DNA of 64,000 nucleotides from Gaiellaceae bacterium. Its GTDB lineage: Bacteria > Actinomycetota > Thermoleophilia > Gaiellales > Gaiellaceae. Numbering within the stretch: the first letter of the stretch is position 1; every line of letters starts with the position of its first letter. The position numbers and the translations under genes were made by a program. The stretch lies in assembly GCA_045806045.1 (NCBI GenBank), contig JBJMKB010000087.1, positions 12,277 to 76,276 of the forward strand. The letters run 5' to 3'. Below the pieces are notes generated by a model, which was given only the letters and a program-made list of their open reading frames with translations, searched no databases and was not told where the DNA came from. Below are positions 18,896-49,252 of the stretch, piece by piece.

Positions 18896-18968
18896 GGCCC
18901 ATTCGTCTAGTGGCCTAGGACACCGCCCTCTCACGGCGGCGGCACGGGTTCGAATCCCGTATGGGCCT
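18896..18968 (+). tRNA. tRNA-Glu (anticodon CUC)
   Basis: Cloverleaf read by eye: acceptor GGCCCAT/ATGGGCC, anticodon stem CCGCC/GGCGG with loop CTCTCAC, T-arm ACGGG-TTCGAAT-CCCGT; no encoded CCA; TACACT box at 18876-18881. Confidence 0.9.
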
Positions 18969-28412: not shown

Positions 28413-28483
28413 CTGCGGGACTAGGACTCGAACCTAGACTACCGGATTCAGAGTCCGGCGTCCTACCATTAGACGATCCCGCA
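28413..28483 (-). tRNA. tRNA-Gln (anticodon CUG)
   Basis: Minus strand: acceptor TGCGGGA/TCCCGCA, anticodon stem CCGGA/TCCGG with loop CTCTGAA, T-arm CTAGG-TTCGAGT-CCTAG. Confidence 0.9.
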
Positions 28484-40343: not shown

Positions 40344-40754
40344 ATGCCGACCCGCAAGCAGCGCCGCCGCCGCGAGAAAGACTTCCGTCACGACGTCCGC
40401 GTGTTCGAGGTCGACGAGGAGGGCAACGAGGTTGCGCTGGCCGAGCTGCGCACCCCCGAGGAGCGCGGGTCGAAGACGAAGCAGCAAGGCAAGCCGGTGC
40501 GGAACGCGCGGGGGCGCGCGATCCGGGTTCCGCCCGAGCCGTCGTGGCACCGCGCGTTGCGCCGCGGCGGCGTCATGGGCGCCGTGATGCTGTTCGCGTT
40601 CCTGTTCCTGTTCAAGAGCGCGCCGCTCGGACTCCGGATCGCGTGGGGAGCGTTCTACGCCGCGGCTTTCATCCCCCTCACCTACTGGATCGATCGCACC
40701 GCCTATCGCACTTACCAGCGCCGGGTCGCGCGGCAGTCCGACAAGAAGTCCTAG
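40344..40754 (+). CDS. hypothetical membrane protein (136 aa)
   Basis: ATG 40344; basic N-terminus MPTRKQRRRREKDF, two TM helices; remainder of ORF 39285..40754 is shadow of hutI. Confidence 0.55.
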   Translation: MPTRKQRRRREKDFRHDVRVFEVDEEGNEVALAELRTPEERGSKTKQQGKPVRNARGRAIRVPPEPSWHRALRRGGVMGAVMLFAFLFLFKSAPLGLRIAWGAFYAAAFIPLTYWIDRTAYRTYQRRVARQSDKKS

Positions 40755-46530: not shown

Positions 46531-47193
46531 GTGAGCGCCCTTCGCCGCCCGGGCCTCCGCTTCGTCGCGGAGGCGGTCGTGATCGTCCTGACGGCGGTCG
46601 TCACCGGGCTCCTGCACGTCGGCGCGCTGGGGATCGGCGGCGCGGTCGCGATCGTCTGGCTGGCGTACGTGGTGATCGAATACTCCCTCGCCCATCCGCG
46701 CGAGCGGAAGCCCGAGCCCGTCCTCGCCGAGCGTCCCGAGGAAGCGGCGCCGCCGTTGCCGGGCACGGAGTCGGTGCGCGTGCTCGACGCTCCGCCCGAG
46801 CTCGTTTCAGAGCCCGAGCCGGTCTCGGACGCCCCACCGGAGCGCGAGCCGGAACCGGAGCCGGAACCTGAACCTGAACCTGAGCCGCCGCCCGAACCGG
46901 AACCCGAGCCCGAGCCGGAGTCCGACACCACCGCCGTGGCAGAGATCGAGCCCGAACCCGAGCCGGAGGCCGAGCCCCCTCCTGAGCCCGAGCCCGAGCC
47001 GGTGGAGGCACAGGAGTGGAACGTGTGGGAGATCGCGCGCGTCCTCCGCCAGCAGGGCGACACGGACGAGGAGCGCGAGCTGCTGCTGATCTACCTGCGC
47101 GACTACGCGAACCCCGACGGTGTCCTGCCGGTCGACTTCGACGCGCTCGTGCGAGAGTCGTTCCCCGACGTGGTCGGGACGCCTGCGGGATGA
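46531..47193 (+). CDS. two-TM membrane protein with (Glu-Pro)n repeats; architecture like the preceding gene
   Basis: 220 aa; N-terminus [18 protein letters not shown] ... [14 protein letters not shown], then [25 protein letters not shown] and [18 protein letters not shown]. Confidence 0.6.
46840..47001 (+). repeat. imperfect hexanucleotide (GAR-CCN)n coding repeat, two blocks
   Basis: GAGCCGGAACCGGAGCCGGAACCTGAACCTGAACCTGAGCCG... and GAGCCCGAACCCGAGCCGGAG... Confidence 0.8.
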
Positions 47194-47597
47194 GGCCGCG
47201 TCTCGCGCAGCGCGAGGTCGCGCTCGCGGGGCTCGCGCTACTCGCGATCGCCGTCTCGCTCGCCGTGAACGCGCAGACGCGCCAGACGACCCCGACGACG
47301 CCTCAACCGGAAGGCTCCTACGCGGCGCGCGCAGGCTCGAGCGGCCCGGCCGCGTTCGGACGGCGCACAGCCTGCGGCGGCGTGATCAGACCCGACACCG
47401 TCGGCGTCTCGCATCCGACGCTGCCCTGCGGCGCGCGCGTCTTCATCACGTATCGCGGCCAGACGGTGCTGACGCAGGTCGTCGATCGTGGACCGTACGT
47501 TCCCGGCCGGCAATTCGACCTCACGGATGCGCTTGCGCGCCGGCTGGGCCTGCGAAACGTTCAGGAGATTCACTGGTCTTACGCTCGCTCGGGCTAG
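47190..47597 (+). CDS. rlpA: RlpA-like (DPBB) lytic transglycosylase-family protein
   Basis: 135 aa; signal/[21 protein letters not shown] motifs GRRTACGGV ... [14 protein letters not shown] ... VVDRGPY; ATGA overlap with the upstream gene. Confidence 0.8.
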
Positions 47598-47607
47598 GAA
47601 ACGGCGC

Positions 47608-47613
47608 TACAGT
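47608..47613 (+). promoter_or_regulatory. -10-like TACAGT positioned to start a transcript 2-3 nt before the structured domain
   Basis: TACAGT 47608-47613; a start site 6-8 nt downstream would fall near 47620, and the closing helix starts at 47623. Confidence 0.3.
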
Positions 47614-47619
47614 TTGGGC

Positions 47620-47810
47620 GAGTGCTCGATCTCGTTCGTGCGCTGCGTATCCATGTAGAACCAACACCATGTGAAAGGGAGCCCGCGTCGGGCCTACGTG
47701 CCTCGCACGGACGGTTCGCGTAGCACCCACCTGGCTTGTCCAGGTTCACACGGACGCGGCACAACCGGCGAGATCGGAGCATGGTGAGGGGAGCTTCGGC
47801 TCCCCTCACG
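47620..47810 (+). ncRNA. candidate structured ncRNA (~190 nt); family unknown, strand tentative
   Basis: 12-bp long-range helix 47623-47634 / 47769-47781 (one bulged G) encloses about 135 nt with local helices (47637-47642/47704-47709; 47729-47734/47740-47745). Perfect hairpin GTGAGGGGAGC-TTCG-GCTCCCCTCAC at 47784-47809. No credible ORF. Confidence 0.4.
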
Positions 47811-47812
47811 AC

Positions 47813-47979
47813 TAGAGGCTTGATGTGGATTGGGGTGCTTGTGGGGATGGCTCAGACCAAGCAGGTCGTTCGGGTCGGGCGCAGGGCATAGCGGTGCCTA
47901 CGTTCAAGCCCGACCCGGGCGAGATGCGCCGTGTCTGAGCCACCATCCGCGAGTGCACGAGATCCACATCAAGCCTCTA
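47813..47979. ncRNA. 167-nt rod-shaped hairpin element (6S-like RNA candidate, or a MITE)
   Basis: Perfect 18-bp terminal inverted repeat TAGAGGCTTGATGTGGAT / ATCCACATCAAGCCTCTA. Internal helices 47845-47857/47933-47948 (13 bp, 3-nt bulge) and 47871-47880/47908-47917 (10 bp). Two 13-15 nt internal loops. Confidence 0.4.
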
Positions 47980-47980
47980 C

Positions 47981-47986
47981 TAGTCT
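47981..47986 (+). promoter_or_regulatory. -10-like TAGTCT, 6 nt upstream of the mnmA ATG
   Basis: CTAGTCTGGAACGATG; places the rod element upstream of, not within, a leaderless mnmA mRNA. Confidence 0.35.
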
Positions 47987-47992
47987 GGAACG

Positions 47993-49252
47993 ATGATCGA
48001 GCTCTACGGAGATTCCGCACGTGGGGGAGACTGGGCAGCGGTTCGCCTGCGCGTCGACGGCGAGACGATCGTCGACGCGGACGCGCCCGGCGTCGCCGGC
48101 GATCTCCGCGGCCTGACGCTTTTCGAGGCCGCCGCTGTCGGCGGCGAGACGTTGCCGGTCGACGCGCTCGCGAACGCGCTGGCACCGGCGCTGCAGGCGA
48201 AGCCGGACGACCGACGTGTGGCCGTCGCGATGAGCGGCGGCGTCGACAGCGCTGTCACGCTGCTCAAGGCCAGCGAGCATGCCGTCGGCGTGACGCTGCG
48301 CCTGTGGCTCGACCCCGACGGGCCGGATGCCGAGCGCGCGTGCTGCTCCCCCAGCGCCGTGATCGCGGCGCGCGAGACGTGCCACGCGCGCGGCCTGCCG
48401 CACGTGACGCTCGACCTTCGCGAGGAGTTCCGGCGAGCCGTCGTGACGCCGTTCGTGCGCGGCTACGCGCGTGGCGACACGCCGAATCCGTGCATTCGCT
48501 GCAACGGCGGCTTTCGCTTCGCCGAGCTGCTCTCGTTCGCGAAGCGGGTCGGCGCCGCGCGTCTCGCGACCGGCCACTACGCGCGCATCGTCGAGCGTGA
48601 CGGCAGCCTCTTCCTCGCCCGCGCCCATGACGGATCGAAGGACCAGAGCTACATGCTCGCAACGCTCGAACCGCGCAAGCTCGGACGTCTGTGGTTCCCG
48701 CTCGGCGAGCAGACGAAGGAGCAGACACGTGCGGAGGCCGCGGCTGCTGGACTCGCCGCCGCGACGCGCGCCGACAGCCAGGAGGCGTGCTTTCTCGCCG
48801 GCGACGACTATCGCAACTTCCTCGCGCGCCACGGCGTGCAGGGCGCGCGCGGCCCGGTCGTCGACGAATCAGGTCGCACGCTCGGCGAGCACGACGGACA
48901 CTGGCGCTTCACTCCTGGTCAGCGCCGCGGTCTCGGCATCTCGGCGGCCGAGCCGCTCTACGCCGTCGGCACCGACGCGCGCACGAACACCGTCGTCGTC
49001 GGCCCGCGCTCGTCGCTCGCGCGCACGACGGTTTCGGCACGCGGCCGCCTCTTCGCACATGCCGACCGCGTCAGCGCAAAGCTGCGCTACCGGTCGCCCG
49101 CGGTCGGCGCCGCCGTCGAGCCGACGGCGCACGGTTTCACGCTGCGGCTCGACGAGCCTGCGTTCGGCGTCGCGCGCGGTCAGGCGGCCGTTCTCTACGA
49201 CGGCGACGTCGTCGTCGGCTCCGGCCTGGTGACATCCGCACGCGGCGACTAG
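47993..49252 (+). CDS. mnmA: tRNA 2-thiouridine(34) synthase MnmA with a ~75-aa N-terminal extension
   Basis: PP-loop AMSGGVDSAV at residues 79-88, catalytic Cys context NPCIRCN, MnmA sequence to the C-terminus. Extension has high GC3. A canonical-length start is also possible at GTG 48218. Confidence 0.9.
   Translation: MIELYGDSARGGDWAAVRLRVDGETIVDADAPGVAGDLRGLTLFEAAAVGGETLPVDALANALAPALQAKPDDRRVAVAMSGGVDSAVTLLKASEHAVGVTLRLWLDPDGPDAERACCSPSAVIAARETCHARGLPHVTLDLREEFRRAVVTPFVRGYARGDTPNPCIRCNGGFRFAELLSFAKRVGAARLATGHYARIVERDGSLFLARAHDGSKDQSYMLATLEPRKLGRLWFPLGEQTKEQTRAEAAAAGLAAATRADSQEACFLAGDDYRNFLARHGVQGARGPVVDESGRTLGEHDGHWRFTPGQRRGLGISAAEPLYAVGTDARTNTVVVGPRSSLARTTVSARGRLFAHADRVSAKLRYRSPAVGAAVEPTAHGFTLRLDEPAFGVARGQAAVLYDGDVVVGSGLVTSARGD

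Follow-up and report, generated by a model that had tools for sequence, protein, structure and literature searches.

The 167-nt hairpin at positions 47813-47979 of the window (the whole 64-kb stretch of DNA analysed here) is, with a probability that we place near 0.93, a recent copy of a MITE belonging to a TA-duplicating family, most likely moved in trans by a transposase of the IS982 type. The sequence-only reading of this hairpin had favoured a 6S/Ms1-type RNA gene and had offered a MITE as the alternative; it is the alternative that was borne out, by the signs that the same reading had named for it: dispersed copies, TA duplication and absence in relatives. The element shows what is looked for in a MITE, namely terminal repeats, a TA duplication with single-TA empty sites, a small non-coding body, dispersed copies and an insertion sequence (IS) with the same ends. 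What is new is this particular family; the kind of element, a MITE with an IS982-type partner, is already known, and the unusual points are limited to the targeting of stop codons and to the strand-specific conservation of the rod into which the element folds. The analysis removes a false small-RNA candidate, and the case carries a wider caution: a MITE can mimic a structured RNA gene and, when its copies are taken in error for orthologues, even passes a test for covariation.

The element, its copies and its empty sites

The termini of the hairpin are as they had been described: TAGAGGCTTGATGTGGAT (47813-47830) and 47962-47979 are exact reverse complements. These perfect 18-bp ends are made up of 16-bp terminal inverted repeats, also perfect, with TA included. 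The MITE body (47815-47977, + strand) is a 163-bp non-coding segment, GAGG...CCTC, with a rod-like hairpin fold, and it is delimited by homologues at unrelated loci, by absence from orthologous loci and by covariation. Its left terminal inverted repeat, GAGGCTTGATGTGGAT (47815-47830, + strand), has identical counterparts at the termini of a 960-bp IS982-family element; the right repeat (47962-47977, - strand) reads ATCCACATCAAGCCTC on the + strand. Outside the body lie the left (47813-47814) and right (47978-47979) copies of the duplicated TA target, both identified from the single TA at the empty site of relatives and from the TA found on both sides of most family members.

Folded as RNA, the + strand of the element reaches -114.4 kcal/mol; dinucleotide shuffles of it reach -64.8 +/- 4.5 (z = -11.1), and none of 200 folds as well. 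The - strand reaches -97.0 (z = -10.1). In the minimum-energy fold, 69 pairs are formed, including 10 G.U, and no loop exceeds 0x4 or 2x3; the predicted structure is a nearly continuous rod, without a large central bubble. The inner helices pointed out earlier were recovered as inverted repeats I6 (47848-57/47933-42) and I2 (47861-80/47908-27). The '13x13' and '13x15' internal loops that had been placed between them, and with these the big central bubble, vanish once G.U pairs are allowed, because only Watson-Crick runs had been counted. The element gave no Pfam match and no frame is open throughout all family copies, in agreement with the remark that no credible ORF covers it. It is also, as had been stated, the only copy in the 64-kb window: a search for the terminal inverted repeats with up to 3 mismatches and blastn of the element both return 47813-47979 and no second copy.

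Outside the window, the family is widely dispersed. In a scan of one genome per species, the 18-mer end matched at least 113 stretches of DNA; the matches listed come from about 49 assemblies, almost all of them Gaiellaceae, Gaiellales or Thermoleophilia, and the highest count among these matches is 21 loci in one MAG. Copy number had been suggested as a check on the RNA-gene reading, and with the element dispersed over so many stretches a locus-specific gene is not borne out. Blastn combined with end-pairing yielded 69 full-length copies, all distinct and with different flanks, whose length is 161-182 bp (mode 167-168); these are 68-96% identical to the window copy and form four main subfamilies, and the element ends are conserved across the 65 copies that were aligned. 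Internally deleted derivatives of 39-122 bp are also present. Some very short derivatives, 29-54 bp long (L082:1294-1322, L037:2956-3006, L090:2509-2548 and others), keep both ends and have lost the apex symmetrically, as expected from in vivo extrusion and deletion of a palindrome. A few 18-mer matches in unrelated phyla were set aside as chance, similarity stopping short of the element; matches of the 16-mer end to viral contigs (19 single matches, 0 paired ends) were likewise taken as chance, and a plasmid collection contained no match to the MITE. Rfam returned no match for the window copy or for the family copies L035, L085, L059, L115 and L029, which represent at least three subfamilies.

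Orthologous sites separate the element from its surroundings. In three orthologous loci (L001-L003), whose MnmA proteins are 92%, 84% and 84% identical to that of the window, the spacer between rlpA and mnmA measures 225-234 nt, compared with 395 nt in the window. When the spacers are aligned, the 6S region and the adjoining stem-loop (both described below) are almost invariant, and only the 167 nt are absent. The empty site in relatives reads CACGAC-TA-CTCTGG, and the window reads CACGAC-TA-[GAGG...CCTC]-TA-CTAGTCTGG; the right flank of the window, TA-CTAGTCTGG, differs by 3 nt from the nearest empty site, TA-CTCTGG, which leaves the filled/empty pair imperfect. Scanning metagenomes with a 21-mer from the 6S core brought up 120 further loci, and in none of them does the element lie between 6S and mnmA. 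A reciprocal filled/empty pair is provided by L103, a locus from a MAG that is syntenic with the window: there, a MITE (142-308) lies within the stop codon of a gene. The window orthologue of this gene ends ...TCC-TAG-CC, with the empty target CTAG at 40750-40753 and the TAG at 40751-40753. Conversely, the site that is filled in the window is empty in L103 (L103:5540-5691). A single TA is present at both orthologous empty sites—relatives compared with the window, and the window compared with L103. Judged by this presence/absence polymorphism, the family would be mobile. The RNA-gene reading had called for conservation of the hairpin in orthologous rlpA-mnmA spacers; it is missing in three relatives with intact flanks, and a locus-specific RNA gene is therefore refuted by the standard which that reading had chosen. 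Given that the closest relative of the window copy is 96% identical and that the insertion is unique to the lineage, it is probably recent; it looks like a tolerated and probably neutral insertion and not like a gene of the locus.

Target preference, stop codons and the partner insertion sequence

TA flanks the element on both sides at the window copy, as had been noticed from the outset, and does so in 74 of 100 family elements. In the same 100 elements, target position -3 is mostly C (71%), with T in 19%, and at position +3 G (63%) is followed in frequency by A (20%). From the TA on both sides together with the bias of the flanks, the target is therefore Y-TA-R with duplication of the TA. 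Models with a 3-bp (CTA) or 4-bp (CTAG) duplication were considered and rejected: the right flank in the window is TA-C, and the family logo sets TA against both ends. The window junctions themselves, C-TA-G on the left and C-TA-C on the right, exclude a 4-bp CTAG duplication.

Genes around the copies were called with a codon-usage model, which recovers the genes annotated in L002 and L003. There are 42 contexts in which the 3' end of a gene faces the element, and in 34 of them the stop codon overlaps the terminal TAG/CTA of the element by exactly 3 nt. Judged from these sequences, insertion is into the TA of a TAG stop codon, which the first G of the element restores.

The same ends were found on a larger element. 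At L066:5-969, a segment with the termini of the MITE and c-TA..TA-g flanks carries one ORF of 286 aa, and five further 960-bp copies with the same termini and TA flanks occur at different loci (L136, L137, L140 and L141, each at 1415-2378, and L139:66-1029). The product of the ORF matches the NCBIfam model for IS982 (NF033520) with 151.8 bits, the cutoff being 130, and also matches Pfam DDE_Tnp_1; among plasmid proteins, IS982-family transposases from Streptomyces and Rhodococcus, 37% identical to this one, are its nearest annotated relatives. More than 4000 homologues of the transposase were found, the best 120 of which are 85-98% identical and reside mostly on contigs of ~1 kb, which is what a repeat collapsing in assembly would produce. 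The 960-bp IS is very abundant in soil metagenomes, its copies lying on contigs labelled Actinomycetota, Acidimicrobiia or Acidobacteriota, labels that derive mostly from short binned contigs. It duplicates TA within a CTAG-like target and often abuts the stop codon of a neighbouring gene. Its termini are GAGGCTTGATG.../...CATCAAGCCTC; the 5'-AC-3' ends of IS982 are absent. MITE and IS share only ~16-20 terminal nucleotides, and a comparison of MITE ends with IS ends gives 20-28 of 40 identities in every pairing, so that the pairings are not distinguished from one another.

We infer that the MITE family is mobilized by this IS982-type transposase. In the mechanism that we propose, a 163-bp non-coding element with 16-bp inverted repeats would have spread through Gaiellales/Thermoleophilia genomes, moved in trans most likely by the DDE transposase of the 960-bp IS982-family IS, with which it shares ends and target. 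It would insert at TA, preferably within YTAR/CTAG, and duplicate the TA; most copies would land in the TAG stop of a gene, where the first G of the element would rebuild the stop. Such an abundant pair of IS982-type IS and MITE in soil Actinomycetota, entering TA mostly at TAG stops that are then rebuilt, would amount to a low-cost transposon lifestyle in a very GC-rich genome.

The rlpA-6S-mnmA locus

The gene upstream of the element encodes an rlpA-like DPBB (lytic transglycosylase) protein of 135 aa (47190-47597, + strand), identified by a Pfam DPBB_1 match and by a codon-model call that agrees with annotated orthologues in L002 and L003. Just upstream of rlpA, inside an ORF at 46531-47193, a run of 12- and 18-nt repeats (GAGCCCGAACCG-like; 46768-47002) encodes Glu/Pro-rich peptide repeats.

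Between rlpA and the hairpin, and outside the latter, lies a homologue of 6S RNA (ssrS; 47621-47784, + strand). The alignment of this region with Rfam RF00013 spans the entire model (1-187) and scores 31.9 bits (E = 1e-4), short of the gathering score of 46.4. Homologous regions with the same 21-mer core align with 6S along its whole length in 12 loci, at 34-44 bits, and the homologous region of L187 scores 76 bits, above the gathering score. The segment is nearly invariant in relatives, and the closing stems of the homologous regions covary. As far as alignment and covariation can tell, this uncultured soil lineage probably has its 6S gene at 47621-47784, between rlpA and a leaderless mnmA; routine annotation would miss the 6S gene of the lineage because most copies score under the Rfam threshold. 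The arrangement of 6S followed by mnmA recurs in many of the 120 metagenomic loci. An Rfam scan, which had been recommended as a check on the hairpin, was run over 47500-48100 at E <= 10 and gave no 6S or Ms1 match on 47813-47979, the sole 6S match being the one at 47621-47784. In the window as a whole, the only Rfam matches above gathering score are two tRNA genes (18896-18968, + strand; 28413-28483, - strand).

A GC-rich stem-loop, GTGAGGGGAGC-TTCG-GCTCCCCTCAC (47784-47809, + strand), adjoins the 6S region; it is a perfect 11-bp inverted repeat (I5), invariant in L001-L003 and without a T tract, and may terminate the 6S gene or form the hairpin at its 3' end. A consensus scan of 47300-48300 returned no sigma-70-type promoter and no intrinsic terminator.

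Downstream of the element, mnmA (tRNA 2-thiouridine synthase, 419 aa; 47993-49252, + strand) is recognized by three Pfam domains and starts with the ATG at 47993. The MnmA of the window is identical to an NCBI protein labelled Gaiellaceae, which assigns the window to a MAG of that family. The length of 419 aa and full query coverage are kept in Gaiellaceae homologues, and conservation of the length in more than 100 homologues indicates that the ATG at 47993 is real. An N-terminal extension of ~75 aa (window 47993-48217) is without Pfam match, its length being conserved across the Gaiellaceae homologues (419 aa). Ahead of the gene stands the -10-like box TAGTCT (47981-47986, + strand), a putative promoter element. 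A TAnnnT box (TACCCT, TACTCT or TAGCCT) is found 6-7 nt before the mnmA start in ~45 of 48 distinct orthologous loci, which backs the earlier remark on a -10 box and a leaderless mnmA and suggests a leaderless gene whose -10 box directly abuts the 6S stem-loop. In nearly all orthologues (L142-L261), the TAnnnT box is followed by GG ahead of the mnmA start codon. In one locus (L176:5590-5700), the junction of 6S stem-loop and mnmA -10 box holds ~115 extra nt with four copies of the palindrome GTGTCTGACAC / GTGTCAGACAC; this segment may be a different insert or an operator-like array.

Within this arrangement, the window copy would have entered at the upstream edge of the -10 box of the leaderless mnmA, at the TA that separates this box from the 6S stem-loop. 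The 6S gene would thereby have been pushed 167 bp from the mnmA promoter with neither of them destroyed. Duplication of the TA leaves a -10 box on the mnmA side, and the window keeps TAGTCT 6 nt before the ATG. An influence on the expression of mnmA or 6S is at most inferred.

The strand-specific fold, competing readings and known systems

The rod is not peculiar to the window copy. RNAalifold, applied to the 65 aligned copies, predicts 57 pairs, 35 of them with two-sided pair-keeping changes, and 94.2% of cells in the alignment are paired; the covariation score is 0.454, compared with 0.174 for shuffles (0 of 500 as high) and 0.06-0.09 when partner columns are slid. A rod kept by compensatory changes across subfamilies is, on this alignment, a property of the whole family. 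One strand is favoured throughout: the strand homologous to the window + strand folds better in 69 of 69 copies, by a mean margin of 23 kcal/mol, and G.U cells number 375 versus 20 A.C cells. Variants within subfamilies that depart from the Watson-Crick consensus show the same imbalance (G.U 45 versus A.C 10, p = 2e-6), as do singleton variants taken by themselves (25 versus 10, p = 0.017). A general G+T skew does not account for the surplus of G.U, since A is commoner than T in unpaired columns. In those columns, C>T is seen at 19 of 50 sites versus G>A at 10 of 70 (p = 0.004), and A>G is not in excess over T>C; part of the strand asymmetry may therefore be mutational. Two unpaired motifs, the GG in a GGGG run and the AA in ACCAAGC, are conserved across subfamilies. 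With respect to flanking genes, the copies are oriented without bias (16 co-oriented versus 14 anti-oriented, p = 0.86), which makes an orientation-dependent role in host transcripts unlikely.

A passive transposon alone leaves the one-strand folding of 69 of 69 copies and the 375 to 20 ratio of G.U to A.C unaccounted for. It is conceivable, though in our judgement rather improbable, that the MITE has a second role, its + strand acting as a functional structured RNA, either an RNA of its own or a terminator, stabilizer or RNase III site in host transcripts. The two-sided changes and the covariation above the shuffled level speak for this, as do the surplus of G.U over A.C within subfamilies, which goes beyond plain G+T skew, and the conserved unpaired motifs; they are countered by the unbiased orientation of the copies, by the C>T excess, which may make the asymmetry partly mutational, by the lack of any promoter-like site in the consensus scan of 47300-48300, and by the fact that hairpins with compensatory changes have already been described for bacterial MITE-like repeats (PMC3184786). 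A more specific version, tentative to a similar degree, would have the family as a mobile structured ncRNA, the rod being selected as a strand-specific single-stranded structure and most simply as a + strand RNA of ~165 nt. If this were true, an RNA of that size with conserved internal-loop motifs would work either for the element, where control of the IS982-type transposase is one example, or for the host; since the copies show no preferred orientation towards host genes, a role in the biology of the element itself is favoured over one in host transcripts. The strand-specific conservation of the hairpin raises a small question, that of the purpose of MITE hairpins.

A strand-specific hairpin would also be accounted for if the element were a palindrome of the REP/RAYT or IS200/IS605 type, which a Y1 (HUH) transposase moves in the form of single-stranded DNA, and the better fold of one strand in all 69 copies with G.U far above A.C would fit such a history. 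To our knowledge, however, Y1-type elements have no terminal inverted repeats, no target duplication and no DDE-type IS partner, and here terminal inverted repeats, TA duplication and a DDE-type IS with identical ends are all present, which makes this route very unlikely. Equally little weight can be given to a MITE of the Tc1/IS630 superfamily, the affiliation guessed at first. Duplication of TA and a CTAG-like target are hallmarks of IS630, and both are found in the family; yet the sole autonomous element on which these termini were found has a transposase of the IS982 family and the DDE_Tnp_1 type, not an IS630 (DDE_3) one, and no IS630-like ORF stands beside these ends among the 113 loci listed. 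The least probable account is the one from which the study of this hairpin started, a locus-specific small RNA gene of the 6S/Ms1 type whose product binds RNA polymerase. A long, irregular and very stable intergenic hairpin on the same strand as its neighbours invites it, but the orthologous spacers examined are without the hairpin, more than 100 copies are dispersed elsewhere, no 6S or Ms1 match is obtained even at E <= 10, the central bubble is absent and a 6S homologue already occupies 47621-47784. We accordingly retain the MITE with an IS982-type partner as the preferred reading.

Several known systems resemble the element in part. With 6S RNA (RF00013), the flagged hairpin has in common a long irregular hairpin of similar length, and it adjoins a 6S homologue; unlike 6S RNA, it lacks the model match, the central bubble and the single-copy synteny. 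IS5 uses a YTAR target with a 4-bp duplication, and IS630/Tc1 elements use CTAG with duplication of TA. The palindromic preference for Y-TA-R/CTAG seen here is like that of both groups; in contrast to IS5, the duplication is 2 bp, and the transposase is neither of the IS630 type nor an IS5 equivalog.

In the IS982 family, direct repeats vary from 0 to 9 bp and the inverted repeats have conserved 5'-AC-3' ends (PMC7335449). The partner IS agrees with this family in its length of ~1 kb, its single ORF and a transposase above the NCBIfam cutoff, but has GAGG...CCTC ends in place of 5'-AC-3' (PMC7335449), and the strict TA duplication inside YTAR observed for the element is absent from the IS982 review (PMC7335449).

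Long RNA-type stem-loops are a classic feature of bacterial MITEs (PMC3184786). Correia/NEMIS, ERIC and Bacillus bcr1 elements are intergenic and have terminal inverted repeats, short target duplications and long stable stem-loops at the RNA level, and the structure of bcr1 is kept by compensatory changes (PMC3184786). The element described here likewise combines terminal repeats, a short duplication and a long stem-loop; it differs in having no sequence relationship to these repeats and in targeting TA in YTAR, mostly at TAG stops. Its preference for folding on one strand holds in every copy, a trait that we did not find described for Correia/NEMIS, ERIC or bcr1.

The closest parallel is a MITE of the Cardinium endosymbiont, which is derived from ISCca4 (IS982), is ~240 bp long and multi-copy, and is thought to be maintained by intact parent copies (PMC9769881). 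Like that MITE, the family described here is short, has no transposase gene, matches an IS982-family IS in its inverted repeats and is present in many copies; unlike it, the host belongs to the Actinomycetota and not to the Bacteroidota. Whereas the Cardinium MITE keeps internal pieces of its parent (PMC9769881), the element in the window shares ~16-20 terminal nt with its IS, and the remainder is a rod-like hairpin.
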